Positions 15,079 through 64,000 of a stretch of 64,000 nt of DNA are shown piece by piece; positions within the stretch are counted from its first letter, which is position 1, and every line of letters starts with the position of its first letter. Position numbers and translations under genes: made by a program. Under the pieces are notes generated by a model that was not told the origin of the DNA, made no database searches, and saw only the letters and a program-made list of their open reading frames with translations. Origin of the DNA: Escherichia coli (lineage in GTDB: Bacteria; Pseudomonadota; Gammaproteobacteria; Enterobacterales; Enterobacteriaceae); the NCBI RefSeq assembly GCF_051903065.1, contig NZ_CP178438.1. One strand, 5' to 3'.

Positions 15079-15323
15079 GATTATCCCTTATATTTCATAC
15101 TGCGATTATTTCAATTTCAGTATACTAATGAAATGATGCCAGACTGTTTCTTAGCGCAAAAACTGCCAGATTTGGTAGGACCAAAATTTATCCACAAAGT
15201 AGTTTTGCATAACAGTTAATTGATAATAAGTAAATGCAACACGAATATATTTTCGCACAGCGTATAGCTTATGTTTATAAAAAAATGGCTGATCTTATTT
15301 CCAGTAAAAGTTATATTTAACTT

Positions 15324-15429
15324 ACTGAGAGCACAAAGTTTCCCGTGCCAACAGGGAGTGTTATAACGGTTTATTAGTCTGGAGACGGCAGACTATCCTC
15401 TTCCCGGTCCCCTATGCCGGGTTTTTTTT
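15324..15429 (+). ncRNA. gadY: GadY small RNA
   Basis: Sequence ACTGAGAGCACAAAGTTTCCCGTGCCAACAGGGAG...CCCGGTCCCCTATGCCGGGTTTTTTTT matches my recollection of GadY; intrinsic terminator at the 3' end; -10-like TATATT just upstream; opposite strand abutting the gadX stop. Confidence 0.75.
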
Positions 15430-15445
15430 ATGTCTGAGTAAAACT

Positions 15446-35156: not shown

Positions 35157-37145
35157 CTACTTTTCTTCCAGGTAACTCTCTTCGAAGATTTCAATAGGGA
35201 GTGGACGAGCAAAAAGGAAGCCCTGGGCAATACCAACGCCCGCTTTTGCCAGCCAGTCGCGTTGTGCTTCAGTCTCCACGCCTTCGGCAATCATTTGTAA
35301 GTTCAGGCTCTGCGCCAGCATGATAATTGCAGCAATCATGCTGCTATCTTCCGGCAAGCCTTCAACAAACATTTTGTCGATTTTCAGAACGTCGATTGGC
35401 AACGATTTCATATGCTGCAGCTGACGCAGCCCTGCGTAGCCCATGCCGAAATCATCCAGCGCCACCCGAACTCCGGCATTGCGCAGCGGACGGAGGATTG
35501 CCACCGCAGCATGAGGGTCGTCAATACGTCGGCTTTCTGTCACTTCCAGAATCAGTGTTCCCGGCTGAATGCGATAGCGGGTTAACAGTTCCAGCATATC
35601 CGCCACCATATTCGGGTGCATCAGTTGCAGCGCAGAGAGGTTTACCGACAAGGGCAGCATAATGCCGCGCTCTTGCCAGGCTGCAAGCAATCGACAGGAC
35701 TCTTCCAGCACCCAGTGACCGACGGTAACCATCAGCCCACAGCACTCAATGCGATCGATTAAGCCATCCGGCAGGTCCCAACTGCCATCCGGTTGCTGGA
35801 TACGCAGTAACACTTCCGCACTGACCAGTTTACCGCTGGTCATCTCGACCTGTGGCTGTAACCAAATAGCAAACTGATGATTTTCCAGTGCATTAAGGAT
35901 ATCGCTCTCTTCCGTCAACCGCTTCTGGGCAGCTTCCATCTGCTGCGGATCAAAGAACTGAATCTGATTCTTGCCTTTATGGCGAGCGGTAAATGCCGCA
36001 GAAATAGCGCGACTGTAAAGCTGTTCGGCGGTGAGATCGCCGTAGAACATCGCCACGCCAATGCTACAGTGCGGACGGAGTTGAATACGTTCAATCGACA
36101 GGCGCTCGCTCATGATAGTGAGCACTTGCTGACCTAAGGTGATTGCGTGCCACGGTTCCTGTACACCATTGGCAATGACAGCAAAGTCATAACCGCTAAT
36201 CTGCGCGAGGATCATACGTGGCGACAGTACCGATTTGAGTTTTTCCACCAGCGTCAGCAGCAGAATTTCTCGTTGCGCCTCTTGCAGCACACCCGCAGTA
36301 TCACGCAGGGTTTCACAGGTGATGATCATCAGCGCGGTGGTTTGTTTACGCGCGACAACCTGCTCCAGCATCTCCATCAGCAAGGCTTTGTTCGGCAAAT
36401 CCGACACCGGGAAGCGCATCGCATTTTCGTTCTGTTCTTCATAATGGCGCTGCAGCAATTGCTGGTTGAGGTTGTAACTGCGCACCAACATACCGATTTC
36501 ATCGTCCTGATGCAGACGCGGTAATGCCAGTTGGTGACCAACAAGCTCCTGGGCTGGGATGGCGTTAAGTTCGCGAGCAATATTGCGTAACGGATGCAAA
36601 ATCAGGCGGTTAATGCACCAGCTAATCGCCACCGTCAATATTAACGACAAAAGTAAGTAAATGGTCACTAACGTTGAGAGGGTGCTCATCACGAACTTAT
36701 ACATACGGAAGGAATCCGCCTGTAGCACCAGATAGGCAATTGGCTGCGGATTTGCCGGACGTTCGAGCGAGTAGACGCCCAGCGAGATTTGAACCGGTAG
36801 CTCAAACAGGCGAGTAACCATTACCGGCACCGGACGCTCTGGAATAAAACTTTTACGCAGCGCCTGGAACTGGTTAGGCAGCACTACATCGGCACGGCTG
36901 ACCACGCCTGCCGGTTTAATGCTGGCAAGAATAGCTTCCGCTTCGGGAATATCGCCTTTCAAAATGGCTGAAGATAAGGGTTCGCGGACAGAGCGAGCAA
37001 TGCTTTCCAGTTGCGTAGCCGTGTTATAGCGATTCTGCTGGACCAGATGGAACAGCAAAACGGTGCAAAAAATAAAAACGAACACCAGGACAACGGCTGC
37101 CACCATTGCCATCTGCTTGATTGTTAACGAGCGACTTACGCGCAA
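35157..37145 (-). CDS. pdeK: Membrane-anchored GGDEF-EAL protein PdeK
   Basis: 662-aa ORF with an N-terminal TM segment and a C-terminal EAL domain ([15 protein letters not shown]); exact start uncertain. Confidence 0.85.
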
Positions 37146-37226: not shown

Positions 37227-40200
37227 TTACCAGTCGGCGTAAGGTATCAGTGGCTGCGGCGGTAAATCCATGTCACCCTGCCATCCGGCGGCGGAATAAC
37301 GTACGTAGAGCAGGAAATGGCTGGGGGCGTAATCTTTCGCCTGCTGGATATCAATTGCCGTGCCGACAAACCAGTTGGAAGTAACACGTCGTTCAAGTAA
37401 TGCCCGCGCCGTATAGCCGAAGCCCTGGCTGCTGCCGCCATCGTTGGATTGCCGCGCAGCTTCTTCCTGCCAGTCGGTCGGGATCAGATTCATCAGCGGA
37501 TAACGCGGCATGGTTTTGGTGCGTGAATGCGACCACGAGCCAGACGCCCCCAGCTCCCACGACCAGTTTTCCGTGCGCTCCCGCCACATCACCGGTATGG
37601 CAAACGACAGGTATTCCTGCGGGCTGTAGTAACCGCCCTGACCGAGTGAGTAGCCACTCAGGTCTTTGTCGTAATGCCAGATCATGTTGTTCAGGCCGAT
37701 TGTGACGCGGCGATTGTTCTGGTTGATGACCTTATAGTAATAGCCCGTCATCCAGCGCACACGCCAGTTATCTTCGACATTTTTACCGGTTAACTGGTCG
37801 CCACTAAGCGATGCCCAGACGCCGTTTGCTTCACCTTTATCGTAGCTCAGGCTTAGCCCCACGCCGTCGGCACGCACGCCGCCCCATTTTTTCCCGGTAT
37901 TGCTCGGGGAGTCTTTTTGCCCACCAAAGGCCAGCAAAGAACTGGAGATGGGCCGACGGTGGGCGTTAACGGTGTAACCCAGCGGCCCGATATCATCGCT
38001 GTAACTGATGCCGCCGACCACATCCACCACGTTGAAGCCCATCGGCGTGGTGCCGATATCCCAGCTCCAGACGTCATTTCGCCAGCCGACCGCCACGCTG
38101 GCACCGGAATCCGACTGGCTGCGGTTGCCGCTACAGTCCTGTAATGTACAGGTGCCCCAGTTGTCATCCCATTTGCCATCGGCATTAGTGGAGAAACTGC
38201 CGACGTTCATATTGACGAAATCACTGCGAAAGAACATCCGCCCGTCAGAATACGGCGCATCCACCTGCAACATGGTAGTGTGCGCTTTCAGATCGGAGTA
38301 ACCACCGGTGCCGCTCGAACCCCAATAATCATGCTCGAGGGTGACGTTAAGATCCTGCTGGCGATAGAGGTCCGCCGCATCGCTGCGCACGCCGCGTTTC
38401 AGCCAGTCATCTTTCTCGTCGTTACGGGTCAGTCGGGTAAAGGTGTCGTTATCCTGCGGACGCGTCGTAGTCACACCGGATGCGACCATGGCGTCTTTGT
38501 AGGTTTCCAGCGCCTGCTTTGGATCGCCCGCCTGCGCTTCAAACTTCGCACCATCACGCAGTACCATCGCACTTTCCATCGACGGTGGCTGAGATTTTGC
38601 CTGCGGGATCACCTTATTAAACGTCTGCTGCGCCGCTGCGGTATCGCCAAGCTGCGCCTGCGCCAGCGCCACGCGCCGCTGTGTGTTCAGCGAGGCGTTA
38701 TCGGTGGCAGGCAGTTTCGCCAGCTGGCTACGTGCCGCCGATTTGTCACCAGCAGCAATATCCACTTCCGTCAGACCAAGAATGGCATCGGCGTTAGTTG
38801 GCTCCCGCGTCAGGACATTCTGATATGCAGCGCGGGCGGCGGTGTAATCACGTCGCTGCTGCGCCCAGTCAGCCAGCGTGAGGTCAATACGCGTGGAAGG
38901 TGGTTGCTGACGCAGCATCGCTTCCGCTTCAGCTTCTTTGCCGCTTTCTCGCAGGCGATTAGCGGTTTCCAGCACCTGATCGCTTTGCAGTCGATTAACC
39001 AGCTCCTGAATATTGCTGCTCCACTGCGCACGCGGCAGGCTGTTGATATGCGCCAGCGCCGCTCTGTCCTGGTCATGACCAGAGAGGTACAGCCCGTAAG
39101 CGTAAACCTGCTCCGGGTCGTTCGGCTTCTGCTGCGCCAGATTGCGCATTAACGTATCGGCCTGGCTGCGTTGTCCGGCCTGCCAGAGATCCTGCGAAAG
39201 TCGGTAAGTAATCCATACGCTGCCGGGGTCCAGCGCCAGTCGTTGCCGCTGAAGTGCTGCCGCCTGCGCCCATTTGCCCTGGTTTTCCAGTGCCTCTGCC
39301 TGCTGTGCCAGACGGTCGTTTTGCAGGCTGCGTTCGATATCATCAATGCTACGTCGCTGACTGGCAGAGAGCGAGGCGATAAACGCTTCAGCTTTTTCTG
39401 GCGATTGCTGGCGGTAAATATTTGCCAGCCCGCGCACGGCGTTAGTGTTGCCGCTGTCCATACGCAAGGTCTGCTGATAATAACGTTCGGCGGCGGGATA
39501 ATCTTTTCGCGCCATCGCCACATCGCCCAGCCCCAGCACTGCATAACTGTCGGTGTTATCGACATTACGCGCCTGCTGGAACAGGCGTTCTGCCCGGTCA
39601 GGATTATTGGCTTTCAGCGCAGCATCGCCCTGCTGGATTGCCAGCCAGTAACGGTTTACTTTCAGCAGACTGTTCCATTTGTCGTTGTTGCTGCTGTGCG
39701 GATCCAGTGCGAGGGCTTTTTCCAGATTCGCCACTGCATTGGCGCGATCGCCTTTCTGTGAATATGCCTGGCCCAGCGCCCCCAGAGCCTCACTGTCTTT
39801 CGGGTTCGCCCGCACTGCCTGTTGTAGTTCGGGAATGGCTTTACCCGCCATACCAGAGTCCACCGCCGCTAAACCTTGCGCACGAGCGCGGAAAGCAGGA
39901 TCGGCCAGCTGTTTTTGCTGTTCTGCCAGTTGCGATTGCGCAGCCGCCACGCTATCGCCATCACTAAAGATCGAAAGATATTTTTTCAGCGCCTGCACGC
40001 TGGCATCGCTGACGGGCATGTCTTTAATCTGCCCGTACCAGATTTTAGATGCCCCTTCGCGCCCGGCGTTCGATTTCGCCATCTGTTCCAGGACGGCAAA
40101 ACCTTCGTCACGGCGATCGCTACTAAACAGCAATAGCGCCAGATTGTTTTGCAGGCCCGTATTGCCCGGTGCATCCGCATTGATGCGTTTTAACTGATTA

Positions 40201-40700
40201 ATCGCTTCGCCACGGCGAGCCGGAATTTTCGCCACCGTACTCCAGTACTCGACAGCAATGTCACCTTCCGGCGGCGCACCGTTGAACAGCTTGTTGTAAC
40301 TCGCCACAGCTTCTTCCGCATGACCGGTAGTCGCCTGCAATCTTGCCTGTTGCAGTGCCTGACGACCATCTGGCGTGGAAAGTAGCATCGTAGTCCGCGA
40401 CGATTTATACGCATTTGAACTCGGCGCTAACTGCGACAGCCGATCGAGCTGTTTTTGCGCGCCATCAATATCGCCCTGACGTAACAAAGAACGGAAACGG
40501 GCGGCAACGACGTCCGGATTATTCGGATCAATAAGTTCCAGCCGATACAACGACTGTTGCACCAGGTCTTCACGATGGGTCGCTTCGCCTAACCGAACTT
40601 GCTCCAGCAACTGTTGCTGAGCGGTTGGTGCTGCCTCGACCATCGGCATGACGGCCAGACCGAGGGAAAGCGTGAATATGTTTAGTGTGAATTTGCGCAT
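37227..40700 (-). CDS. bcsC: Cellulose synthase outer-membrane subunit BcsC (TPR repeats plus beta-barrel)
   Basis: 1157 aa; signal peptide; long TPR-repeat region. Confidence 0.95.
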
Positions 40701-41788
40701 TCCTGGCCCCAGTCAGGTAATAACTCACCTTTTGTCGAGAAGCGGAAACGGTGTTGATCCCAGCCTTGTCCAAACAGGGTCAGCACATAGTTGTAATAGG
40801 CATCGCTGCCGGGAAAGTTATCGGCCACGCGCTGGCGCTGAACGGCCTGCGCATCGCGGTTTTGTAAAAAGGGCAGCATGGCGGCAGAAAAACCGACCGG
40901 TCCTTTACCCTGCGCTTTCGCCGTAGCCACATCCACTTTTTCCGGCGGATAACCGTTTTTCTCAGTGAATGTCGCCATCGGTTTAAACCGGTTGAGCATC
41001 CGCGCTTTCTGCGGATCGCTGTCAGGCATCATGCCTACCCACATGTAAACGCGGATAGCGTCGTAGCTGCTGATCAATGTTTTTTCGGCTTTTAGCTGCC
41101 AGCCTTTGTCTTTCTCATAGCGCACCCAGTCTGGCGAAAAGCCTTTCGGGGCGGTTTCCAGCAATAAACGTTGATTGGTTTCGCGCAGCGTAGTCCACGG
41201 CGCGCCAAAGCGGGTGAAATACTGCGCCAGCGTCGGCGGCAGGTAGCTGGGGTTAAAACGCCAGCTGTTATCCTCAGCAAAACCCACTTTGCCCGGTAAC
41301 AACATGGAACCCAGCCCAGGCACCGTCACCACTTCCTCCCGCGCGATACGTTTTAGCAACGCGCTGCCGATGTCGGTATAACGCTGCTCTTTCCACAAAC
41401 GCCCCGCCTCCAGCAACGACCAGGCCATCCAGACATCACCATCGGAGGCCGAATTGCTGTCCAGCACTTCCCACTTACTGTTCTCTTTCTTGCCCCACAG
41501 CCAGGCGGGCAAACGTTCTTTTAAAGAACCCTGAGCGAGATTGTTCTGCGTCCAGTCGAGAATATTATCGAAAGCTGCACGGTCGTTAGCCGCCAGGGCA
41601 AAGAACATACCGTAACTTTGCCCTTCGGAGGTGGTGATTTTGCGCGCGTCGCTGGGGTCGATGACGCGCCCTTCCTGACTGATGTAATCCTTTTTAAACT
41701 GCTCCCAGGCAGGCCAGGTACAGGCTGCCTGAACACTAAAGGCAGCCAACAGCAGCATCGTCACGAGTCCACTACGCAACACATTCAT
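40682..41788 (-). CDS. bcsZ: Endo-1,4-beta-glucanase BcsZ (GH8)
   Basis: About 368 aa from [22 protein letters not shown]; overlaps the bcsC start by 19 nt. Confidence 0.9.
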
Positions 41789-41794
41789 CTTCAA

Positions 41795-44134
41795 TTACTC
41801 GTTATCCGGGTTAAGACGACGACGGCTGATAATACGCAGCAAACGCCACAGTACCCAGGCCAGCAGCACGACGCTGATAGCCGCCAGCACCGCCAGCAGA
41901 ATCGGATGGTTTGCCAGCGCATACCACAAGCGCTCGAACCACGGCAGATGACCTACGTAATAAACGTCGCCAACACGTAGGCTGTTGATACCGGACTCGC
42001 GGATCACCGCGACCGAACCGAACATGGTGGCGCGTTTGCCGCTATCGTTCACCGCATCGTTAAGCATTTCATAACCGCGTGGGCTATCTGCCAGCAGCGC
42101 AATCACGCTGCGCTGGTCGTTATACGGCGACTGGAAGCCAATCACCGCCGCCATCGCACCGGAAGAGGTCAGCGTTGACTGGGTTTCTGCCGCGCGATCG
42201 CTCTCGTCCGGCACAATGCCGGGGAACGGGGTCTGGCGCATCGGTGTTTTCACCCAGCTTTCGGTCGCCTGCACCAATAGGTCGATCTGCTTATCGTCTT
42301 TCAGTTTGTCCGGGATACCACCGATGATCATGATGTCGGCATCTTTGCCCTGAATGGTGCTGCCATCATCGGTCACCGTCAGATTAATCGCCGGGAAGCC
42401 CGTCTGTGCGCCGATAAAACCAACAGTATTCAGCAACGTTTCCATCTGTGCTTCGTTAGGCGTTTTCGGCATCACGGTGATGGTTTGCGACAGATCCGCC
42501 ATCCGGCTGAACGGGAAGCCCGCGTTAGCAAAGGCGCGTAGATCCGGCATCGGGATGAAGTGGTAATACTTCGAGAAGTCGATGGTGGAATCGTCACCAA
42601 TCACCACATGATTCTGCACCGGCTGGAAGGTAATACAGTTATCCACCGAACCGCCCGGCATCGGGTTCATATACTCAAAGTCGAAGCGCAGCTGGTTGGT
42701 CGCGCCCAGTTTCAGCGCCGGAATAGAGACATCCGTTTTGCCATCCAGCAAACCTTGTAATACCGGAATCCGCAGCAGCAGGCGGTTCGCCTCCTGTTTA
42801 CTGCTCAGGTTGAAGGATTGCAGGAACTGGTTATTCAGGCTGATATCCATCCGCGAACTGTCTTTCACCGGCGGCATGGTGTAGCGGTAATTAATATCCA
42901 TATCAATGCCGGTACTGCGCATCAGGTAGAGATCCGGCGGCAGGTTTAGCGAAACGTTAATCGCTGCTGGCTCAAGACCGCTGGATTGTAACTGTTCTTC
43001 ATAGGTTTTCAGTTCACCAAAGGTGACCGGACGATCGGTACGTACCCAGTTCGGCGCATCGTACGGCTTACGTGGTAGCAGCGGTTTCACTTCATTCACT
43101 ACCACGCTTTCACCACGGAACAGAATGTTACCCTGAGCGATACCTTTCGCTGCCTGCAACAGGTCTTTGTCGTCACGACCAAACACCACCAGCAGTTTGA
43201 CGTAAGGATTCTGCGGATGGTTAATCATCTCAATCACCGGGGCTTTTACCGCCGGATGATCGCGCAGGAAGTCCGGCCGTTTGTCGTTGGTTGCAAAGAC
43301 AATGGCATTGCGATCCGGCAGTTGGTTATAGAGCACCGAGAAGTTCTGCCCACGCCAGCCAGAACGCGAACCAAACCACGAGGCGACAATGGCAGAGGCT
43401 TGTTGCAGCCCAACATCCGGCGCACCCGCAAAGACCATCGGCAAGGTGTTGGTGCGGTTATCACGCGGGTCAAAGAATGGCACCGGGAAGTGTGACAGGT
43501 CATTCTTCACATTCAGGGTCTGATAGGTCAGATCCAGTCCACTGCTCCGCCCAACATCCAGCCAAAGCGTGGTGCTGGCCGGGTTTTCGCACACGTCCTG
43601 ATAATGGCCGACAAACTCCAGCCGCACACGGTTGAAGTCGGTAATAAACAGTGGATTAATGGGCATTTGCGCCAGCGTTTTTTTACCCAACTGTTCTTTG
43701 GTCACTGGCAGCACGCCCATCAGCTCATCATTGAGATAAACCTTTAACTGCGACTGGACAGGCAGTAACGATGGCGATGGCGTGTATTCGAGGTTGAGCA
43801 TCGCCTTCGTCACCACTTCATCGCTGCGCATACCAAACTCAATGCTGCCGTTCGGGTTAATGCCACGTAGCACCATGCTGCCCGGCGGCGGCGCAATTTG
43901 CGCAAAGGTCAGCTTCACATCACGCGAAGGACCGTTCTGCGCCACGACTGGCGCATCAGCGCCCTGCACGCCCGGCATCACTTGCCCCACCTGCGGATTT
44001 TGTTCCGTCTGGGCGGCTACAGCTGGCTCAGCATTGATCAGTGGTTGCGTTGCTGGCGTCGCCTGCGTCATGAAAGAGGGGAACGCACTCATCCCCATAG
44101 CCACTGCACAAATCCAGAATAGTTTTCTTTTCAT
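41795..44134 (-). CDS. bcsB: Cellulose synthase periplasmic regulatory subunit BcsB
   Basis: About 779 aa from MKRKLFWICAVAMGMSAFPSF (signal peptide); C-terminal TM anchor. Confidence 0.9.
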   Translation of the reverse strand: MKRKLFWICAVAMGMSAFPSFMTQATPATQPLINAEPAVAAQTEQNPQVGQVMPGVQGADAPVVAQNGPSRDVKLTFAQIAPPPGSMVLRGINPNGSIEFGMRSDEVVTKAMLNLEYTPSPSLLPVQSQLKVYLNDELMGVLPVTKEQLGKKTLAQMPINPLFITDFNRVRLEFVGHYQDVCENPASTTLWLDVGRSSGLDLTYQTLNVKNDLSHFPVPFFDPRDNRTNTLPMVFAGAPDVGLQQASAIVASWFGSRSGWRGQNFSVLYNQLPDRNAIVFATNDKRPDFLRDHPAVKAPVIEMINHPQNPYVKLLVVFGRDDKDLLQAAKGIAQGNILFRGESVVVNEVKPLLPRKPYDAPNWVRTDRPVTFGELKTYEEQLQSSGLEPAAINVSLNLPPDLYLMRSTGIDMDINYRYTMPPVKDSSRMDISLNNQFLQSFNLSSKQEANRLLLRIPVLQGLLDGKTDVSIPALKLGATNQLRFDFEYMNPMPGGSVDNCITFQPVQNHVVIGDDSTIDFSKYYHFIPMPDLRAFANAGFPFSRMADLSQTITVMPKTPNEAQMETLLNTVGFIGAQTGFPAINLTVTDDGSTIQGKDADIMIIGGIPDKLKDDKQIDLLVQATESWVKTPMRQTPFPGIVPDESDRAAETQSTLTSSGAMAAVIGFQSPYNDQRSVIALLADSPRGYEMLNDAVNDSGKRATMFGSVAVIRESGINSLRVGDVYYVGHLPWFERLWYALANHPILLAVLAAISVVLLAWVLWRLLRIISRRRLNPDNE

Positions 44135-44144
44135 CGCGTTATCA

Positions 44145-46763
44145 TCATTGTTGAGCCAAAGCCTGATCCGATGGTTGTGCCGTTTCGCTCCGCTCCGGGC
44201 GGCGCGGAATAAACGATACAACCCAGGAAACCAGAGAAGTCAGCACACGGAATATGCCCTTCACCGAAGAAGGCGCAAACTCCGCCAGATGGCGGTAGCC
44301 ACGGAAGCCGAGCTTCAGAATATCCAGCAGACTTTCCAGCGGCTTATCTTCCGGATAGCTGTCCTGCCAGAGCGCCCATGTATCCGCACGGGCAAACGTA
44401 CACTGCACAAAATCGATATGTTGCTGGGTGGTGAGCGGCATTAATTTCAGCCCAACTTCATTACCCATCACGCGCGCCACCTGGGTCGGGAAAACGTATT
44501 CCTGCTGACCGCGTTTAAGCAACAGATTCACTTTCTGCCCTTCCAGAATCTGCGCCTGACCGTTGATCTTGATCCCCAAACCACCATCGGAGAAATCCTG
44601 AACGGTACACGAAAAGAGGTGACCATCTTCGCGGGCAATTGCCGCGGGCATCGTCATCTCCACGCGGTGCGATCGGCGTACCTGTTTGCTTTCTACCGAT
44701 ACCGCAACTGCGCCGCCAAGAACAATCAGGTTGTAGAATACCCACACCATACTGACGACCACGGTGAGCATCTCGGTTGGCGGGCCATAGAAGTAGCGCC
44801 AGATGCCTACCGCAACGCCCACCAGGTTGAGCAGGACAAGGAAGATGTAGGGCCGCGAGATCACCCAATCGACGTACTCTTCTTCCACCAGTCCACCTTT
44901 GGCGGTGACGTTAAATTTGCCTTTGTGCGGGTTAATCAGCGCCACCAGCGTCGGTGGTGCGATATACCACGCCAGCACCGTTTCGTAGATTTCACTCCAG
45001 AAAGAGTGGCGATATTTGCCCTGGATCTTGGAGTTGGTCAGGCTGGCATGGATCATATGCGGCAGCACGAATAGGGCGATCATCAACGCTGGCGCATAGA
45101 TGATGTAGGCATGAAGCAGCAGGAACGCCAGCGGCGCAGTCAGGAAGATCAGCCGTGGAATGCCCGACAAGAAGTGGAACATGGCGTTGACGTAACATAG
45201 CCGCTGAGCAAACTTCAGCCCTTTACCGGTGAGCGGGTTATCGAGACGGAAGATTTGTACCATCCCGCGCGCCCAGCGAATACGCTGACCGATATGCGCC
45301 GACAGACTTTCGGTCGCCAGCCCCGCCGCCTGCGGAATACGCATATACGCGGAGGTATAGCCACGACGGTGCAAACGCAGAGAAGTATGCGCATCTTCAG
45401 TCACGGTTTCGACAGCAATGCCGCCAATTTCATCCAGCGGCTTACGACGAATCACCGCACAGGAACCGCAGAAGAAAGTGGCGTCCCACATATCGTTGCC
45501 ATCCTGCACCAGACCATAGAACAGCGTGCCTTCGTTCGGCGTTTTACGAAAACGCCCCAGGTTGCGTTCAAACGGGTCCGGCGAGAAGAAGTGGTGTGGA
45601 GTCTGCATCATCGCCAGCTGTTTCTCTTTCAGGAACCAGCCCATGGTCATTTGCAGGAACGATCGCGTTGGTACGTGATCGCAGTCGAAAATCGACACGA
45701 ACTCGCCTTTGGCATATTTCAGCGCATTGTTGATGTTGCCCGCTTTCGCATGTTCATGAGTGGTACGGGCGATATATTTCACCCCCACGTTTTGCGCAAA
45801 CTGGCGAAACTCTTCCCTGCCGCCGTCATCGAGGATCCAGATGTTCAGCTTGTCTTTCGGCCAGTCGATACCCAGCGAGGCGTAAATGGTATTTTTCACC
45901 ACGTTGAGATCTTCGTTGTAAGTCGGGACAAAGATATCCACCGACGGCCACAGCGACATATCTTTCGGCAATGGCACCGGCTGACGATTCAGCGGCCATA
46001 CTACCTGGAAGTAGCCGAGCACCAGCACAATCCACGCGTACGTTTCAGCGAAGAGCAGAATAAGCCCGCACACCAGGCTGACCGGATCGTCCCAGTTCAG
46101 CGTAGAGGTGTAACGCCACCAGATATAACGGCAAGAAACGGTCAGCGACAGCACAATCAACATTAGCGCCGAGAAGCGCCCCGGCATCCGCCGTACGATC
46201 AGCGCTACCCCCCACAGCAGCATCAGGAAGATAAACTGCGCCAGCGGGTTAAACGGCTGAGTAACGCAGATTAACGCCAGAATCAGCGAGAAGGTGACGA
46301 TGATACCGAGGATCAACCGCCGCGCCCCGGCACTCAAATGACCGAGCTCTTTTTTCTCATCAAGATGCTGTGTTTTATGGCTAACGCGCTCAGGCAGCTC
46401 GTTCATCCATTGATGGTAACGTCCACGAATATTCTGCAGACCTGAAAATGCCCGCCTGCGCGGTTTCGGCGTTTCTTTGCGCGATGCACCGATCAGTAAC
46501 CAGCATGTTTGAATGAGATAACGGACCGGGTCCAGCGGACGCGGACGCGAGGCGTTGATATGCGGATACAGGTTTTTATGTTCTGCGCGAATACGCTGCC
46601 AGCGCGGGTGCTCCAGCGGAATAAAAATCCAGGCCAGGATCATCCAGAAACAGCCGAGCGTCGCGCTGAAAGCCGACGCACCGTGACGACGATAATCGCG
46701 ATAACGCCCGATAAGCCGCGCGTTGACCGGCGGGATAAGCAACCACCGGGTCAGGATACTCAT
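44145..46763 (-). CDS. bcsA: Cellulose synthase catalytic subunit BcsA (GT2 plus PilZ)
   Basis: 872 aa from MSILTRWLLIPPVNARLIGRY; GT2 motifs (DDG, DCD, QRIRWA) and a C-terminal PilZ region. Confidence 0.9.
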   Translation of the reverse strand: MSILTRWLLIPPVNARLIGRYRDYRRHGASAFSATLGCFWMILAWIFIPLEHPRWQRIRAEHKNLYPHINASRPRPLDPVRYLIQTCWLLIGASRKETPKPRRRAFSGLQNIRGRYHQWMNELPERVSHKTQHLDEKKELGHLSAGARRLILGIIVTFSLILALICVTQPFNPLAQFIFLMLLWGVALIVRRMPGRFSALMLIVLSLTVSCRYIWWRYTSTLNWDDPVSLVCGLILLFAETYAWIVLVLGYFQVVWPLNRQPVPLPKDMSLWPSVDIFVPTYNEDLNVVKNTIYASLGIDWPKDKLNIWILDDGGREEFRQFAQNVGVKYIARTTHEHAKAGNINNALKYAKGEFVSIFDCDHVPTRSFLQMTMGWFLKEKQLAMMQTPHHFFSPDPFERNLGRFRKTPNEGTLFYGLVQDGNDMWDATFFCGSCAVIRRKPLDEIGGIAVETVTEDAHTSLRLHRRGYTSAYMRIPQAAGLATESLSAHIGQRIRWARGMVQIFRLDNPLTGKGLKFAQRLCYVNAMFHFLSGIPRLIFLTAPLAFLLLHAYIIYAPALMIALFVLPHMIHASLTNSKIQGKYRHSFWSEIYETVLAWYIAPPTLVALINPHKGKFNVTAKGGLVEEEYVDWVISRPYIFLVLLNLVGVAVGIWRYFYGPPTEMLTVVVSMVWVFYNLIVLGGAVAVSVESKQVRRSHRVEMTMPAAIAREDGHLFSCTVQDFSDGGLGIKINGQAQILEGQKVNLLLKRGQQEYVFPTQVARVMGNEVGLKLMPLTTQQHIDFVQCTFARADTWALWQDSYPEDKPLESLLDILKLGFRGYRHLAEFAPSSVKGIFRVLTSLVSWVVSFIPRRPERSETAQPSDQALAQQ

Positions 46764-47512
46764 GATGCACTCCCGACTGGCGTTTTCAGCCCGGAATAGT
46801 TCAACAGGCACCAGTTCGCCAGCGTCAATATCTCTTCAGCCGCCAGCGCATCACTGCGATATTCACCTACTGGTTGCTTAGCCGCCAGGCATTCAGCCAT
46901 CGCTTCATCACGATGAATGAGCATCGGCAGTAATCGGCGCTGGCTTTGCAACCAAAGCTGGTAAATATCGTCCTGAACCTGACTGCCAATACGGAAGTCA
47001 TTAATCAAAATATGTGCGCCATCCGGCAGCGCTTGCTGATGCAGTCGGATATGGCAGTTGGCATCCACATTGACGATTGCCAGCGAGTGATCGCACAAAC
47101 TCAGCAGCTGGTGGGTTATCTGCGAGGCATCACGCGGTAAGTCGATTAAAATCCACTGGTAACGCCCGCTGGCTTTTAGTTGCTGTAAGCCGGAGCAAAT
47201 ATCGCTCAGCCGGGTTTGCCAGTGCTGTGGATTTTCTTGTTCTTCAATGGATAACTGACCAAAAGGCAGCAAATCGAGCTGCGAGGTGTAGCGCAACCCA
47301 GCGTCGCGCCAGTCCTGGCCATCCAGCATAGCTCTGGCCCAGCCCTGACGGTGGGTAAAATCAACATTAAATGACAGGCGCAACAAGTTGTCCGGGCAGG
47401 CATCGACCACCAGGACATTTTCTCCCAACATTTGTAATGACCAGGCTAATGCGGCGGTGATGGTTGTTGTCCCCACGCCTCCCCGCACCCCCTGCAATCC
47501 CAGTACGGCCAT
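46760..47512 (-). CDS. bcsQ: Cellulose biosynthesis ParA/MinD-like ATPase BcsQ (intact)
   Basis: 250 aa uninterrupted; P-loop GVRGGVGTTT; codon 7 is Gln. Confidence 0.9.
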   Translation of the reverse strand: MAVLGLQGVRGGVGTTTITAALAWSLQMLGENVLVVDACPDNLLRLSFNVDFTHRQGWARAMLDGQDWRDAGLRYTSQLDLLPFGQLSIEEQENPQHWQTRLSDICSGLQQLKASGRYQWILIDLPRDASQITHQLLSLCDHSLAIVNVDANCHIRLHQQALPDGAHILINDFRIGSQVQDDIYQLWLQSQRRLLPMLIHRDEAMAECLAAKQPVGEYRSDALAAEEILTLANWCLLNYSGLKTPVGSAS

Positions 47513-47523
47513 TCACCAATCCC

Positions 47524-47712
47524 CTACTTTTGTTGCGCAAACTCTGCCAGCAACGGCCAGCGTTTTAATGCCGCGGCCAACTGTTCGCGTTGGGAAATAT
47601 CGGCATAATCAATATCAGGCAGTGAAAATGCCTGCTTTAACGCCAAAATATCATTCTGGAAGATATAGCCTATCGCGGGATCAGGCAGAGTATCTGGTTC
47701 ATTGTTATTCAT
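47524..47712 (-). CDS. bcsR: Cellulose biosynthesis protein BcsR
   Basis: 62-aa ORF immediately upstream of bcsQ in the same operon. Confidence 0.8.
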   Translation of the reverse strand: MNNNEPDTLPDPAIGYIFQNDILALKQAFSLPDIDYADISQREQLAAALKRWPLLAEFAQQK

Positions 47713-47984
47713 TTTGCTTGATCCCTATGAAATAACCGTACCGTTCATGAGACAATTCTAATCGTGAGCATTTCGCCGGTTTATTGTTTACGGCGAGACG
47801 GGAATTTGCTCACTTTTTGACTTTCCGTTACGCAACAGAAAAAGTTAAAAACGAAAAGACTAAAATCACACGTCTTGTGACCTGCTAAATTGATTCACAT
47901 GCTAAATCTGATAAGTTTTAATTTCAATGGTAGGTTTATTTCTTAGCTTTCGCTAGTAAACTGATAATCAGACAAAATGGTGAC

Positions 47985-49556
47985 ATGAGGGACATTGTGG
48001 ACCCTGTATTCTCTATCGGTATCTCATCATTATGGGATGAGCTGCGACATATGCCAGCAGGCGGCGTCTGGTGGTTTAACGTCGATCGCCATGAAGATGC
48101 TATCAGTCTGGCGAATCAAACAATTGCATCCCAGGCTGAAACCGCACACGTCGCGGTCATTAGCATGGACAGCGATCCGGCGAAAATCTTTCAATTAGAT
48201 GATTCTCAAGGGCCGGAAAAAATAAAATTATTTTCAATGCTAAATCATGAAAAAGGTCTATACTATTTGGCCCGTGATTTGCAGTGTTCTATTGATCCCC
48301 ATAATTACCTTTTTATTCTTGTTTGCGCAAATAACGCATGGCAAAACATTCCTGCCGAGCGGCTGCGCTCATGGTTGGATAAAATGAATAAATGGAGCAG
48401 GTTAAACCATTGTTCGCTTTTGGTAATTAATCCCGGAAATAATAACGATAAACAATTTTCATTGTTGCTTGAGGAATACCGTTCACTTTTTGGTCTTGCC
48501 AGTTTGCGTTTTCAGGGCGACCAACATTTGCTGGATATTGCCTTCTGGTGCAACGAAAAAGGGGTCAGCGCCCGTCAGCAGCTTAGCGTTCAGCAACAAA
48601 ATGGTATCTGGACATTAGTTCAAAGCGAAGAGGCGGAGATCCAACCACGCAGCGACGAAAAACGCATTCTGAGTAATGTTGCTGTACTGGAAGGTGCGCC
48701 GCCGCTATCGGAACACTGGCAACTGTTCAACAATAACGAAGTCCTGTTCAATGAAGCCCGTACCGCTCAGGCGGCGACGGTGGTCTTTTCTTTACAGCAA
48801 AATGCGCAAATCGAGCCACTGGCCCGCAGCATTCATACTCTGCGTCGCCAGCGCGGTAGTGCGATGAAAATCCTCGTACGGGAAAATACCGCTAGCCTGC
48901 GCGCCACCGATGAACGTTTGTTATTGGCCTGCGGTGCAAATATGGTTATCCCGTGGAATGCGCCACTCTCCCGCTGTCTGACGATGATCGAAAGCGTGCA
49001 AGGGCAGAAGTTTAGTCGCTATGTGCCGGAAGATATCACTACCTTGCTGTCAATGACCCAGCCGCTCAAACTGCGTGGTTTCCAGAAGTGGGATGTGTTC
49101 TGTAATGCCGTCAACAACATGATGAATAACCCTCTTTTGCCTGCCCACGGTAAAGGTGTTCTGGTTGCCCTACGTCCGGTACCGGGTATCCGCGTTGAGC
49201 AAGCCCTGACGCTATGTCGCCCTAACCGTACCGGCGATATCATGACCATTGGCGGTAATCGGCTGGTGCTGTTTCTCTCATTCTGTCGGATTAACGATCT
49301 GGATACCGCGTTGAATCATATTTTCCCATTGCCTACTGGCGACATTTTCTCAAACCGTATGGTCTGGTTTGAAGATGATCAAATCAGTGCCGAGCTGGTG
49401 CAGATGCGCCTGCTTGCCCCAGAACAATGGGGCATGCCGCTGCCTTTAACACAAAGTTCTAAACCGGTCATCAATGCCGAGCACGATGGTCGCCACTGGC
49501 GACGAATACCAGAACCCATGCGACTGTTAGATGATGCTGTGGAGCGCTCATCATGA
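47985..49556 (+). CDS. bcsE: Cellulose biosynthesis c-di-GMP-binding protein BcsE
   Basis: 523 aa; divergent from bcsRQABZC. Confidence 0.9.
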
Positions 49557-49744
49557 TGACCATCAGCGATATCATTGAAATTATTGTCGTTTGCGCACTG
49601 ATATTTTTCCCGCTGGGCTATCTGGCGCGGCACTCTTTGCGACGCATTCGCGACACCTTACGTTTGTTCTTTGCTAAACCTCGTTATGTTAAACCGGCTG
49701 GGACGTTACGCCGCACGGAAAAAGCCAGGGCAACCAAAAAATGA
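49553..49744 (+). CDS. bcsF: Cellulose biosynthesis small membrane protein BcsF
   Basis: 63 aa with one TM helix; ATGA overlaps with bcsE and bcsG. Confidence 0.8.
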
Positions 49745-51420
49745 CTCAATTTACGCAAAATACCGCCATGCCTTCTTCCCTCTGGCAATACTGGCGCGGC
49801 CTTTCCGGCTGGAACTTCTATTTTCTGGTTAAGTTCGGCCTGTTGTGGGCGGGATATCTTAACTTCCATCCGCTCCTCAATTTGGTGTTTGCCGCGTTTC
49901 TGCTGATGCCCATTCCGCGCTACAGCCTGCATCGCTTGCGCCACTGGATTGCCCTGCCGATCGGCTTTGCTTTGTTCTGGCATGACACCTGGTTGCCTGG
50001 CCCGGAAAGCATAATGAGCCAGGGTTCGCAGGTGGCGGGGTTCAGTACCGATTATTTAATCGACCTTGTCACACGCTTTATTAACTGGCAGATGATTGGG
50101 GCCATTTTTGTTTTATTAGTGGCCTGGTTATTCCTGTCACAATGGATTCGCATTACCGTTTTTGTGGTTGCCATTCTGCTGTGGCTGAACGTACTTACCC
50201 TGGCGGGACCAAGTTTCTCCTTGTGGCCAGCCGGTCAACCGACGACCACTGTAACAACGACGGGTGGTAACGCAGCGGCAACCGTTGCGGCGACGGGTGG
50301 CGCACCGGTAGTGGGTGATATGCCCGCACAAACTGCACCGCCAACAACGGCGAACCTTAACGCCTGGCTGAATAATTTCTATAACGCGGAGGCGAAACGT
50401 AAATCGATCTTCCCGTCTTCGCTGCCCGCTGATGCTCAGCCATTTGAACTACTGGTGATTAATATTTGTTCGCTTTCCTGGTCGGATATTGAAGCCGCCG
50501 GGTTGATGTCGCATCCGCTGTGGTCGCATTTCGATATTGAGTTCAAGAACTTTAACTCCGCCACCTCCTACAGTGGCCCGGCGGCGATCCGTTTACTGCG
50601 TGCCAGCTGCGGGCAGACTTCGCACACTAATCTGTATCAACCGGCAAATAACGACTGCTATCTGTTTGATAACCTGTCGAAACTGGGCTTTACCCAGCAC
50701 CTGATGATGGGACATAACGGCCAGTTCGGCGGTTTTTTGAAAGAAGTTCGCGAAAATGGCGGCATGCAGAGCGAATTGATGGATCAAACAAATCTGCCGG
50801 TTATTTTGCTGGGCTTTGATGGTTCGCCGGTTTATGACGATACCGCCGTGCTTAACCGCTGGCTGGACGTTACCGAAAAAGATAAAAACAGCCGTAGTGC
50901 CACGTTCTACAACACGCTTCCACTGAATGACGGCAACCATTATCCGGGCGTCAGCAAAACAGCGGATTACAAAGCGCGGGCGCAGAAATTCTTTGATGAA
51001 CTGGACGCCTTCTTTACTGAACTGGAGAAATCGGGTCGTAAAGTGATGGTGGTCGTGGTGCCGGAACACGGTGGCGCGCTGAAGGGCGACAGAATGCAGG
51101 TATCTGGCCTACGTGATATCCCTAGCCCGTCTATCACCGACGTCCCCGTTGGGGTGAAATTCTTCGGCATGAAGGCACCACATCAGGGGGCACCGATTGT
51201 CATCGACCAACCGAGCAGCTTCCTGGCTATCTCCGATCTGGTGGTTCGCGTTCTTGATGGCAAGATTTTCACCGAAAACAATGTTGACTGGAAAAAACTC
51301 ACCAGTGGGTTGCCACAAACAGCACCGGTCTCCGAGAACTCAAATGCAGTAGTTATTCAATACCAGGATAAACCGTACGTTCGCCTGAACGGCGGCGACT
51401 GGGTGCCTTACCCGCAGTAA
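49741..51420 (+). CDS. bcsG: Cellulose phosphoethanolamine transferase BcsG
   Basis: 559 aa; N-terminal membrane domain, C-terminal sulfatase-like domain. Confidence 0.9.
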
Positions 51421-51425
51421 GCACG

Positions 51426-51456
51426 AAAAAGGCCGCAGAGTTTCACCTCTGCGGCC
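51426..51456 (-). terminator. Rho-independent terminator of ldr copy 1 (also ends bcsG region)
   Basis: Minus strand: GGCCGCAGAG-gtgaaa-CTCTGCGGCC followed by TTTTT. Confidence 0.6.
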
Positions 51457-51506
51457 TGATCCGGGCGCAAATTGCCATTACGGCAGCCTGACGCCCGCAT
51501 GACACG

Positions 51507-51614
51507 TTACTTCCGTTTGTTCAGCCAGTTCACGATCATACTGGCAAGAATGCCAGCAATGACCGGAGCCGCTAAATCATGCCAGAAGGCCATGCCCAGC
51601 TCTGCGAGCGTCAT
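51507..51614 (-). CDS. ldrD: Ldr-family type I toxin peptide, copy 1 (35 aa)
   Basis: MTLAELGMAFWHDLAAPVIAGILASMIVNWLNKRK; one hydrophobic helix with a basic C-terminus, as I recall for the E. coli Ldr toxin family. Confidence 0.8.
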   Translation of the reverse strand: MTLAELGMAFWHDLAAPVIAGILASMIVNWLNKRK

Positions 51615-51662
51615 ATAGCCGCCTGTGTTGTAATGACAACGTTTCGCGGCTATTCTTGTATT

Positions 51663-51728
51663 GTTTGGATGCAAGAATGGCCCCCGTGATGTTGTCAGGT
51701 GCATACCTGCAACGTGCGGGGGTTTTCT
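51663..51728 (+). ncRNA. rdlD: Rdl antisense RNA, copy 1 (approximate)
   Basis: Opposite strand about 50 nt upstream of the ldr ATG; sigma70-like promoter TTGTAA-17-TATTCT at 51628-51656; ends in hairpin CCCCCG...CGGGGG plus TTTT at 51723-51726. Boundaries inferred. Confidence 0.5.
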
Positions 51729-51908
51729 CTCTCCAGCAACCAATACCACCAGGGATTAAGCCCCCGCAACATTGCGCCTCACCGGAACCCTTCCGGCTTG
51801 CCGCTGATTCTACGACTGTTTTTCTGTTCCGGAATCCGTCACGTCTTCACTCTGTGCTGCGCATTCCGCAGAATATTATCCGCTTGCAACCGTTGCATTT
51901 TTCTTACG

Positions 51909-51939
51909 AAAAAGGCCGCAGAGTTTCACCCCTGCGGCC
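51909..51939 (-). terminator. Rho-independent terminator of ldr copy 2
   Basis: Same hairpin plus T-run as copy 1. Confidence 0.6.
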
Positions 51940-51989
51940 TGGTCCGGGCGCAAATTGCCATTACGGCAGCCTGACGCCCGCATGACACG

Positions 51990-52097
51990 TTACTTCCGCT
52001 TGTTCAGCCAGTTCACGATCATACTGGCAAGAATGTCATCAATGACCGGAGACGCTAAATCATGCCAGAAGGCCATGCCCAGCTCTGCGAGCGTCAT
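51990..52097 (-). CDS. Ldr-family toxin peptide, copy 2 (variant, 35 aa)
   Basis: MTLAELGMAFWHDLASPVIDDILASMIVNWLNKRK; differs from copies 1 and 3 at three residues (A to S, A to D, G to D) from four clustered nucleotide changes. Confidence 0.75.
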   Translation of the reverse strand: MTLAELGMAFWHDLASPVIDDILASMIVNWLNKRK

Positions 52098-52145
52098 ATA
52101 GCCGCCTGTGTTGTAATGACAACGTTTCGCGGCTATTCTTGTATT

Positions 52146-52211
52146 GTTTGGATGCAAGAATGGCCCCCGTGATGTTGTCAGGTGCATACCTGCAACGTGC
52201 GGGGGTTTTCT
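52146..52211 (+). ncRNA. Rdl antisense RNA, copy 2 (approximate)
   Basis: Same promoter and terminator-like hairpin as copy 1, shifted by one repeat unit. Confidence 0.45.
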
Positions 52212-52391
52212 CTCTCCAGCAACCAATGCCACCAGGGATTAAGCCCCCGCAACATTGCGCCTCACCGGAATCCTTCCGGCTTGACGCTGATTCTACGACT
52301 GTTTTTCTGTTCCGGAATCCGTCACGTCTTCACTCTGTGCTGCGCATTCCGCAGAATATTATCCGCTTGCAACCGTTGCATTTTTCTTACG

Positions 52392-52422
52392 AAAAAGGCC
52401 GCAGAGTTTCACCCCTGCGGCC
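52392..52422 (-). terminator. Rho-independent terminator of ldr copy 3
   Basis: Same hairpin plus T-run. Confidence 0.6.
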
Positions 52423-52472
52423 TGGTCCGGGCGCAAATTGCCATTACGGCAGCCTGACGCCCGCATGACACG

Positions 52473-52580
52473 TTACTTCCGCTTGTTCAGCCAGTTCACG
52501 ATCATACTGGCAAGAATACCAGCAATGACCGGAGCCGCTAAATCATGCCAGAAGGCCATGCCCAGCTCTGCGAGCGTCAT
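52473..52580 (-). CDS. Ldr-family toxin peptide, copy 3 (35 aa)
   Basis: Peptide identical to copy 1; the 5'-UTR region differs from copies 1 and 2. Confidence 0.8.
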   Translation of the reverse strand: MTLAELGMAFWHDLAAPVIAGILASMIVNWLNKRK

Positions 52581-52628
52581 ATAGCCGCCTGTGTTGTAAT
52601 GGCAACGTTTCGCGGCTATTCTTGAGTG

Positions 52629-52694
52629 GTCTAGGTTCAAGATTAGCCCCCGTGGTGTTGTCAGGTGCATACCTGCAACGTGCGGGGGTTTTCT
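52629..52694 (+). ncRNA. Rdl antisense RNA, copy 3 (approximate, divergent 5' part)
   Basis: Promoter and 3' hairpin conserved, but the first ~25 nt (gagtggtctaggttcaagattagccc) differ from copies 1 and 2 (gtattgtttggatgcaagaatggccc). Confidence 0.45.
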
Positions 52695-53055
52695 CTCTCC
52701 AGCAACCAATGCCACCAGGGTTAAAGCCCCCGCAACATTGCGCCTCACCGGAACCCTTCCGGCTTGCCGCTGATTTTACGATTGCTTTTTACTGTCAGCA
52801 CCCTGCAATCTTCCTCATTGCGTGATGCCTTCCAGCTTAATTTCTTAATTTGCAATAGTTGCAGTTCATATCCGGGCTGACTCCAGACTGGTAGTGAAAT
52901 GCGCAATTTTGTAGAATTGCGCCTCCTCGCGACCTCCCCAGTGAATCTGTTGCCTCATTTTTTACATACTGCGTATTCGACTTCTCCACCTGTTGCGCAA
53001 GAGAAACTGGGTTTATTCATTTTTGCGAGGCCGACTTCTTTCTGGACAGGACTTT

Positions 53056-63056: not shown

Positions 63057-63605
63057 TTACTCATAGGTGATGGAAAAATTGACAAGGGCATTCGCTGTGC
63101 CACCAGTGGCCTGAGTGTTGACGACCACATAACTCGCCTGGTAGTGAAGCGACGTGGTTTCGCCATCAATCGCCCATTCAATCGGCGTTCCGCTGGAGCC
63201 TTTGGGAACTTGCTGCGTTCCTTTATCGTCCTCTATCTTCAACGCAACACCCGTTGCGCCACCAGCCTCAAGGGCAAACATGGAATCATCATCGCTGTCC
63301 GACTGACTGTCCATCTCAACGGTCGCTTTGGATATCCCATCGCACTCTTTGAGTTCAATGGTGAAATCTTTCTTGCTCAACACCGTACCGACTGCCGCAG
63401 GTTTTTGCAGCGTCATTGTTCCCATATCGACTTCGAGATCGCTTTTTTCCATCTCGCAAGCTTTAGTGGTGATAGTGATGGAGAAATGAATATCCCCTGC
63501 CGGGCCAAGATCCGTCGCCGCATTCACCCCGCAGGCAAACAGACTCAAACTGGCGATGCCGCTATGCAGCAATAGTTTGAATTTCATGGCATCACTCCAT
63601 TTCAA
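63057..63605 (-). CDS. lpfE: Fimbrial minor subunit (LpfE-like)
   Basis: 182 aa with signal peptide (MKFKLLLHSGIASLSLFACGVNA); last gene of a fimbrial operon next to eptB; Lpf assignment is by locus position. Confidence 0.65.
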   Translation of the reverse strand: MKWSDAMKFKLLLHSGIASLSLFACGVNAATDLGPAGDIHFSITITTKACEMEKSDLEVDMGTMTLQKPAAVGTVLSKKDFTIELKECDGISKATVEMDSQSDSDDDSMFALEAGGATGVALKIEDDKGTQQVPKGSSGTPIEWAIDGETTSLHYQASYVVVNTQATGGTANALVNFSITYE

Positions 63606-64000
63606 GATATATGGTCGTTACGCCTTCAAACGTCCCGCCTTTAGGCGCTTTACCCGTCGTGCTAATCGGTAAAGCCAGCAGTCGAATCGCGGCATTGCGG
63701 TGAGTTTTAGAATCCAGGCTGCTCAAATTTAATAACGTGGTGCTGCTTGCATCATTCGGTACCAAAATTTTGCCGCTGGAATCTTTCACCAGTACGCCAA
63801 TATCGGGGTTGTCCATATCCACCGCTCGGGGATCGTCAGCATTGGTTGCCCCCTCAAGGCGCAACGAGACTTTGATACCATCCGAGATATTGTTGCAATC
63901 AAAGCCGAGGTTAATTTCTTGCTCTGTCGCACCTTCAGGCATTTGCCCTTGTCTGTTTTTAAACGCTGAGGAGGGGAATTCACCAAATGGCACATCCAGC
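63592..64000 (-). CDS. lpfD: Fimbrial subunit/adhesin (LpfD-like), 3' portion only
   Basis: C-terminal 133 aa visible; fimbrial-like beta-strand-rich sequence; stop overlaps the lpfE start; gene runs off the window. Confidence 0.55.
   Translation of the reverse strand, partial: LDVPFGEFPSSAFKNRQGQMPEGATEQEINLGFDCNNISDGIKVSLRLEGATNADDPRAVDMDNPDIGVLVKDSSGKILVPNDASSTTLLNLSSLDSKTHRNAAIRLLALPISTTGKAPKGGTFEGVTTIYLEME

Follow-up and report, generated by a model that had tools for sequence, protein, structure and literature searches.

An Escherichia coli lineage with a full-length cellulose secretion cluster carries asparagine in place of the BcsG active-site histidine

Results

A type II cellulose secretion cluster with nine uninterrupted genes

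The window, the 64-kb stretch of E. coli DNA analyzed in this study, contains bcsR-Q-A-B-Z-C on the minus strand and divergently oriented bcsE-F-G on the plus strand, with a Pfam match for all nine genes. This is the arrangement of type II (E. coli-type) Bcs systems, and the locus appears to be a standard type II cellulose secretion cluster. The bcsRQABZC unit begins with bcsR (yhjR; 47524..47712, 62 aa), followed by bcsQ (46760..47512) and by bcsA (44145..46763), which encodes the 872-aa catalytic cellulose synthase with GT2 and PilZ domains. Downstream lie bcsB (41795..44134, 779 aa), the GH8 endoglucanase gene bcsZ (40682..41788, 368 aa) and bcsC (37227..40700), whose 1157-aa product combines a TPR domain with an outer-membrane channel. 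The divergent unit comprises bcsE (47985..49556), encoding a c-di-GMP-binding subunit of 523 aa, bcsF (49553..49744, 63 aa) and the phosphoethanolamine (pEtN) transferase gene bcsG (49741..51420, 559 aa).

All nine genes are collinear with those of K-12 and have K-12 lengths, with no indels and no internal stops; PGAP annotation of a virtually identical genome likewise lists nine intact coding sequences with no pseudogene flags. An earlier sequence-only reading, which had described bcsR, bcsA, bcsB, bcsZ, bcsC, bcsE, bcsF and bcsG as full length, was therefore correct on this point. At the protein level, BcsA and BcsF are 100% identical to their K-12 counterparts, and BcsQ equals K-12 BcsQ once codon 6 of the latter is read as Leu. 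BcsR and BcsE differ from K-12 by V23L and T96A, respectively, each common to five of nine panel strains. Private substitutions were found in BcsZ (G290A), BcsC (A654S and L697V) and BcsB, where P266S is the single lineage-private change; Pro266 is kept in 94 of 95 close BcsB homologues, all of them from close relatives (E. coli, Shigella, Citrobacter), the range to which this conservation applies.

The 272-bp divergent intergenic region between bcsR and bcsE (47713..47984), where the promoters are expected, differs from K-12 by SNPs at 47762 and 47884, and a promoter scan of it returned one consensus-like site that did not score above shuffled sequences. Beyond bcsC on the minus strand lies an intact pdeK (hmsP/yhjK; 35157..37145, 662 aa), encoding a membrane-located c-di-GMP phosphodiesterase with a local action on cellulose synthase (PMC7397504). 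Together with pdeH, also intact, it is the only such regulator within the window.

The bcsQ allele is the common form in E. coli

bcsQ is an ATG-started open reading frame of 250 codons plus a stop, and its stop codon overlaps the bcsA start (ATGA). Its product is a subunit with the SIMIBI (ParA/MinD-like) ATPase fold, in agreement with the sequence-only reading. The protein covers the whole profile of the Pfam family CBP_BcsQ (PF06564), with residues 1-236 aligned to profile positions 1-234 of 234 (383 bits, gathering cut-off 21.3; E 6e-115). The ParA/MinD-type families AAA_31, CbiA and ArsA_ATPase also match, and the MinD structure 4V02 is recovered as a distant match. An N-terminal glycine-rich nucleotide-binding loop occupies residues 8-17 (GVRGGVGTTT), and 248 of 250 residues are identical to those of crystallized E. 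coli BcsQ (6YBU). From its identity to the characterized protein (PMC11470070), BcsQ of the window is predicted to bind ATP and to assemble with BcsA and BcsE in a BcsR-dependent manner.

In K-12 MG1655, bcsQ carries a pseudogene annotation. The responsible lesion is at codon 6 (47495..47497, minus strand), which is TTG (Leu) in the window and TAG in K-12 through a T>A change at gene nucleotide 17 (window base 47496); published accounts also place the stop at codon 6 (PMC7397504, PMC5944007). The K-12 null allele is thus absent from the window, and the sequence-only reading was right that K-12 bcsQ has an early premature stop. The same reading had pointed to Gln at codon 7 and proposed aligning that codon to K-12. 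The Gln is present, but codon 7 is not the site of the K-12 lesion: the alignment shows CAG in both sequences, and this codon therefore does not tell the strains apart.

We determined the frequency of the two alleles among 5426 complete E. coli genomes. TTG is found in 4898 (~90%) and TAG in 349, and all 60 of the TAG genomes we sampled are K-12-type laboratory strains. With the uninterrupted form in roughly 90% of sequenced E. coli, an intact bcsQ is ordinary; it is the species norm, already known and not distinctive. On its own it says only that the strain is not a K-12 laboratory strain and has little weight. The TTG allele probably represents the ancestral intact form.

BcsG carries an H396N substitution at its active site

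Codon 396 of bcsG (50926..50928, plus strand) is AAT (Asn) in the window, whereas it is CAT (His) in K-12 and nearly all other E. coli. The sequence-only reading did not mention this change in the full-length protein. The remaining catalytic residues we inspected are all present, namely the Zn ligands Cys243, Glu442 and His443, the nucleophile Ser278, Tyr277, Arg458 and the disulfide pair Cys290-Cys306; the active-site His396 of a competent BcsG is the one replaced.

Among 142 aligned representatives of the BcsG family, position 396 is His in 140 and Asn in none, a conservation matching that of the nucleophile Ser278 and of the Zn-binding residues. Of the 5426 complete E. coli genomes, 5372 have the His codon; the Asn codon occurs in three, all of which belong to the lineage of the window. 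The exact H396N protein, accession WP_047623758.1, recurs on 199 public contigs and in these three complete genomes, with the other bcs open reading frames intact, and H396N is for that reason a real allele. Sequencing error as its source was considered and is ruled out by the independence of the three complete genomes and by the 199 exact matches. Across 7.7 kb, five more assemblies show just 1-5 SNPs relative to the window. For the nearest strains (ECNB21-M121 and 23CRST027/031), a literature search returned no report on biofilm phenotype.

Evidence that His396 matters for catalysis comes from published mutants. A review reports that H396A fails to function in both E. coli AR3110 and Salmonella, and the residue is accordingly described as needed in vivo (PMC10525099). 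The same review puts His396 at the second-metal site of MCR-type pEtN transferases. In MCR-1, activity is lost when H395, a conserved His close to the catalytic Thr285, is replaced by Ala (PMC12658134). By analogy, we infer that BcsG His396 may match MCR-1 His395 residue to residue. Comparing the BcsG family profile with all PDB sequences returned BcsG chains only, with no match to MCR-1, and an hhalign comparison of BcsG with EptB of the window aligned just the PEHG/ADHG Zn-ligand segment (2.6% probability) and did not reproduce the His396-H395 equivalence. As sequence methods did not recover the alignment, this equivalence rests on the review.

Discussion

The sequence-only reading predicted a functional cellulose synthesis operon from an intact bcsQ and eight other full-length genes. 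Part of this prediction stands, in that the contrast with K-12 is real and the genes for core synthesis and secretion appear competent by sequence. The remainder is called into question by BcsG H396N and by the insufficiency of intact reading frames. BL21 and H10407 lack stop codons in their bcs genes, yet give no detectable calcofluor signal (PMC5944007); full length therefore does not equate to functional. The genes csgD, dgcC and rpoS lie outside the 64-kb window. Cellulose production also requires their products CsgD, DgcC (AdrA) and RpoS.

For the core machinery, BcsR would stabilize BcsQ, and the resulting cytosolic BcsR2Q2 module would keep BcsA in a catalytically competent state. Because this module and BcsA, BcsB, BcsZ and BcsC appear competent, glucan polymerization and export should be possible when DgcC supplies c-di-GMP. 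A close experimental precedent is AR3110, a W3110 derivative in which repair of bcsQ codon 6 from TAG to TTG turned K-12 cellulose-positive (PMC7397504). The AR3110 and window loci agree in the order and length of their genes and in their operon junctions, and their BcsQ, BcsA and BcsF proteins are identical. The window differs by natural polymorphisms in BcsB, BcsC, BcsZ, BcsE and BcsR, by three downstream ldr copies rather than one, and by BcsG H396N, which AR3110 lacks. The structurally solved E. coli 1094 Bcs macrocomplex (6YBU, 9FNN, 9FP0, 9FMV) shares the type II bcsRQABZC plus bcsEFG architecture. Its BcsQ differs from that of the window only at residues 172 (D versus N) and 249 (A versus K), while its ~99% identical BcsG differs at residues 58, 223, 396, 489 and 513, again including the active-site His396.

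With Asn396, BcsG catalysis would probably be lost, and pEtN modification, possibly along with secretion efficiency, would be impaired. We favor, with moderate confidence, a reading in which the core synthase is competent and the strain makes unmodified or strongly under-modified cellulose, possibly in smaller amounts, and not normal pEtN-cellulose. Asn, unlike Ala, can retain some hydrogen bonding, such that residual BcsG activity is conceivable. The allele also persists in a circulating lineage in which bcsG shows no further decay, a pattern that fits a tolerated change as well.

If H396N were such a tolerated polymorphism, the whole operon would be functional and would yield normal pEtN-cellulose under the conditions of rdar (red, dry and rough) biofilm colonies. 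The nine intact reading frames free of pseudogene flags, the retention of every other catalytic residue in BcsG and the maintenance of the allele on ~200 contigs are consistent with this. We nevertheless regard it as unlikely, given that His396 is near-invariant in a family where Asn is never seen, that 5372 of 5426 E. coli genomes encode His, that H396A is non-functional in two species according to the review cited above (PMC10525099), and that intact bcs genes do not guarantee cellulose (PMC5944007).

The opposite outcome, no detectable cellulose, could arise from lowered secretion caused by inactive BcsG, from a damaging private substitution such as BcsB P266S or from defective regulators encoded beyond the window. 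The conservation of Pro266 in 94 of 95 close homologues lends it some support, as do the calcofluor-negative strains with intact genes (PMC5944007), the recurrent loss of bcs function in E. coli (PMC10881479) and the presence of bcs stops in two of eight randomly fetched genomes. We consider it improbable, however. As reported in a paper citing Thongsomboon 2018, AR3110 and UTI89 still make unmodified cellulose when BcsG is missing; no evidence supports harm from P266S; and, apart from the repaired bcsQ codon, BcsA, BcsQ and BcsF have no substitutions relative to K-12, with BcsR differing solely by its common V23L allele.

The MCR-1/EptA pEtN transferases share with BcsG the alkaline-phosphatase fold and a mechanism involving a covalent pEtN-enzyme. 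In MCR-1 the conserved active-site H395 is essential, and the review places His396 of BcsG at the corresponding second-metal site (PMC10525099). BcsG differs from MCR-1/EptA in relying on Ser as nucleophile and on one Zn, in having Arg458 in place of a second His, and in acting on cellulose instead of lipid A. Whether H396N is a naturally fixed BcsG knock-out or strong hypomorph in a circulating E. coli lineage (~200-300 public assemblies), shifting the matrix to plain or reduced cellulose, is in our estimate an even call.

Cellulose genotypes called by reading-frame length alone, as in the sequence-only reading and in published population screens, can misclassify strains. The bcs loss-of-function alleles described for ST95 and other pathogenic lineages (PMC10881479) resemble that of the window in being clonally propagated, lineage-wide changes in bcs/pEtN genes. 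They are nonsense or frameshift truncations that leave reading frames below 99% of full length, whereas the window has a missense change that affects a catalytic residue and leaves the protein full length, and truncation-based screens would for that reason miss it. If H396N inactivates BcsG, the lineage would provide a naturally occurring source of cellulose without the modification and would exemplify a missense route, with every bcs reading frame full length, to the convergent "cellulose attenuation" known from pathogenic clones. This would add a further case of matrix attenuation in E. coli, relevant to the architecture of biofilms, to adhesion through curli and perhaps to virulence.

An intact bcsQ within a complete bcs cluster

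The bcsQ gene (46760-47512, minus strand) comprises 250 codons from an ATG start and encodes a protein beginning MAVLGLQGVRGGVGTTT. This protein matches the full Pfam CBP_BcsQ profile (383 bits, E 6e-115) and, more weakly, the ParA/MinD-type families AAA_31, CbiA, and ArsA_ATPase; it is identical at 248 of 250 positions to the E. coli BcsQ solved by crystallography (6YBU and related entries), and MinD is a distant match. The open reading frame and these matches therefore bear out the sequence-only reading of an intact, ParA/MinD-like protein of 250 aa. The same allele (WP_000279528.1) occurs in the unrelated strains B7A and Z1323CEC0014.

That reading was also right about a bcsQ defect in K-12: the gene is annotated as a pseudogene in MG1655, its codon 6 is TAG, and the literature agrees. 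The site it named, Gln at codon 7, was mistaken. Window and K-12 alike read CAG (Gln) at codon 7, and the stop lies at codon 6, which in the window is TTG (Leu; gene nucleotide 17, window plus coordinate 47496). Codon 6 is the sole amino-acid-level difference between the two genes, the other four nucleotide differences being synonymous, and the window locus is not the K-12 null allele. We counted alleles using 55-nt megablast queries with the SNP placed centrally, so that every 28-mer seed covers it. TTG was found in 4898 of 5426 complete E. coli genomes and TAG in 349/5426; an even sampling of the TAG records yielded K-12-type laboratory strains in 60 of 60 cases (e.g., MG1655, DH5alpha, BW25113, J53, HB101, and TG1). 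Because the TTG allele is the species norm, an intact bcsQ is ordinary, and already known.

The remaining genes were likewise described as full length, and this holds. Alongside bcsQ, the minus strand encodes bcsR (47524-47712), bcsA (44145-46763), bcsB (41795-44134), bcsZ (40682-41788), and bcsC (37227-40700), with bcsE (47985-49556), bcsF (49553-49744), and bcsG (49741-51420) running divergently on the plus strand. Base-by-base comparison with the MG1655 locus shows the whole region to be collinear with zero indels, and each gene has its K-12 length and no internal stop. In the virtually identical genome 23CRST027, PGAP annotates nine of nine bcs genes as intact CDSs. The locus is an E. coli-type (type II) Bcs system in every architectural feature tested.

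Whole-cluster intactness is not trivial. Among eight arbitrarily fetched genomes, O157:H7 Z1834 carries bcsQ Q66* (CAG>TAG; 11061-11813 of its fetched locus) together with a stop at codon 1021 of bcsC (1504-4977), and the seawater isolate PCP06171 has a stop at codon 506 of bcsG (14042-15688). A survey found truncating bcs mutations in 74/76 common STs (PMC10881479). Separately, an E. coli/Shigella group of BcsB proteins of 718-730 aa (P0228-P0251) lacks a segment covering residues 262-267 of the 779-aa protein and may represent another natural bcsB deletion allele.

Features flanking the bcs genes

A C>T change (plus strand, 47762) lies in the divergent bcsR-bcsE promoter region, 50 nt ahead of where bcsR starts; it is common to the window and 23CRST027 and absent from K-12 and five other same-lineage assemblies. 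Between bcsG and yhjV lies a tandem array (51423-52795; 483-bp period, 2.8 copies, 96% matches) bearing three type I toxin genes of the ldr family, presumably accompanied by rdl antisense partners; K-12 has a single ldrD/rdlD here and other strains one to three copies. The toxin of the middle copy is a variant (WP_072025054.1).

Farther away, an IS903B-like (IS5 family) transposase gene absent from the K-12 site lies between yhjB and rcdB (yhjC; 22584-23552). It is an open 322-codon ORF in the window and carries a 1-nt indel in 23CRST027, where it is flagged as frameshifted; apart from this indel, the two show one mismatch and no other difference over the first 36 kb. Within the chu/shu heme-uptake cluster, the anaerobilin reductase gene chuY (3231-3853) appears frameshifted and is identical to the 23CRST027 copy flagged as such by PGAP. 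Because it has chu genes, the strain belongs to neither phylogroup A nor phylogroup B1. Just past eptB, which is separated from dppA by a tRNA-Pro gene, the end of the window (63057-64000) carries genes for long polar fimbriae (lpf), namely lpfE and one for another fimbrial protein, an island-type insertion that K-12 lacks at that site.

A substitution at a conserved histidine of BcsG

We compared each Bcs protein with its counterparts in K-12 and in a panel of eight diverse strains. No residue of BcsA or BcsF differs from K-12, nor does any of BcsQ once codon 6 is read as Leu. BcsR V23L and BcsE T96A are both common, and BcsC A654S and L697V, BcsZ G290A, BcsB P266S (codon at 43337-43339), and BcsG H396N and D513N are private to the window's lineage. 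BcsB Pro266 is found in 94 of 95 close homologues, which come only from Escherichia, Shigella, and Citrobacter; BcsG residue 513 falls in a variable alignment column. All Bcs parts are present, and those of the core are identical or near-identical to proteins known to work.

Codon 396 of bcsG (50926-50928) is AAT (Asn) in place of the K-12 CAT. The numbering agrees with the literature, since C243, Y277, S278, C290, C306, E442, H443, and R458 all sit where published work places them. Searching 1.84 billion cluster representatives gave 683 BcsG relatives; among the best 150, aligned, residue 396 is His in 140 and Asn in none of the 142 sequences with a residue there. This conservation equals that of the zinc ligands, the nucleophile, and Arg458 (the same in alignment A1). 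Across complete E. coli genomes, 5372/5426 carry His and 3/5426 Asn (ECNB21-M121, 23CRST027, and 23CRST031), the latter being the three genomes that match the window at 99% identity or more. The exact 559-aa H396N protein (WP_047623758.1) is present on 199 contigs and indexed in 299 assembly-collection blocks, and five more assemblies, 1-5 SNPs away from the window over 7.7 kb, have all neighboring bcs ORFs intact. These contigs and assemblies rule out sequencing error as its source.

Judged by sequence, the window BcsG lacks one residue expected of a competent catalyst, His396. A review of phosphoethanolamine transferases describes His396 as the conserved residue remaining at the "second metal" site and reports that H396A did not rescue pellicle formation in E. 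coli AR3110, a W3110 derivative with repaired bcsQ (citing Anderson 2020), and that mutation of His396 disturbed Salmonella cellulose biosynthesis (citing Sun 2018; PMC10525099). No other source in the literature searched paired BcsG with H396. The catalytic arrangement has been described as Ser/His/Glu (PMC11379886). In the phosphoethanolamine transferase MCR-1, H395A abolishes activity, this being a conserved histidine near the catalytic Thr285 (PMC12658134), which we regard as equivalent to BcsG His396; sequence methods gave no bridge from BcsG to MCR-1/EptB residues.

Likely consequences for cellulose production

Cellulose synthesis also requires DgcC-derived c-di-GMP and CsgD/RpoS control. 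Of the regulators, the window holds only pdeK and pdeH, both intact; the DgcC, CsgD, and RpoS genes lie outside it. BL21 and H10407 contain no bcs stop codons, yet their calcofluor signal is undetectable (PMC5944007). Because of such strains and of H396N, full length predicts function only partly. The sequence-only prediction of a functional operon is plausible for the core and doubtful for BcsG. That the operon is fully functional is unlikely in our view, with the caveat that Asn is a milder replacement than Ala.

It is established that BcsQ is stabilized by BcsR and that a BcsR2Q2 heterotetramer, with BcsE2 and BcsF2 holding it in place, binds the BcsA GT and PilZ modules and keeps BcsA in a competent catalytic state; BcsB makes up the periplasmic crown, export is completed by BcsZ and BcsC, and a BcsG trimer bound to the BcsA N terminus transfers phosphoethanolamine (pEtN) from phosphatidylethanolamine via Ser278 to glucose C6 (PMC11470070, PMC8892547, PMC11379886). 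With Asn396, pEtN transfer would be lost or greatly slowed, leaving cellulose unmodified or under-modified. A competent core with impaired modification is the reading we lean toward. In Salmonella, the catalytic activity of BcsG further determines how efficiently cellulose is secreted, and some E. coli strains cannot secrete it without BcsG, so reduced or absent cellulose is a real alternative; that none is made strikes us as quite improbable. We found no biofilm phenotype in the literature on the nearest strains.

The bcsQ finding was already known, and the BcsG allele is a side result of modest interest that lends itself to testing. Its nearest precedents are the natural alleles that abolish bcs function in pathogenic clones (PMC10881479). 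These are truncations, detected as ORFs <99% of full length, whereas the window carries a missense change at a catalytic residue, which would escape an ORF-length screen, as it escaped the sequence-only reading.
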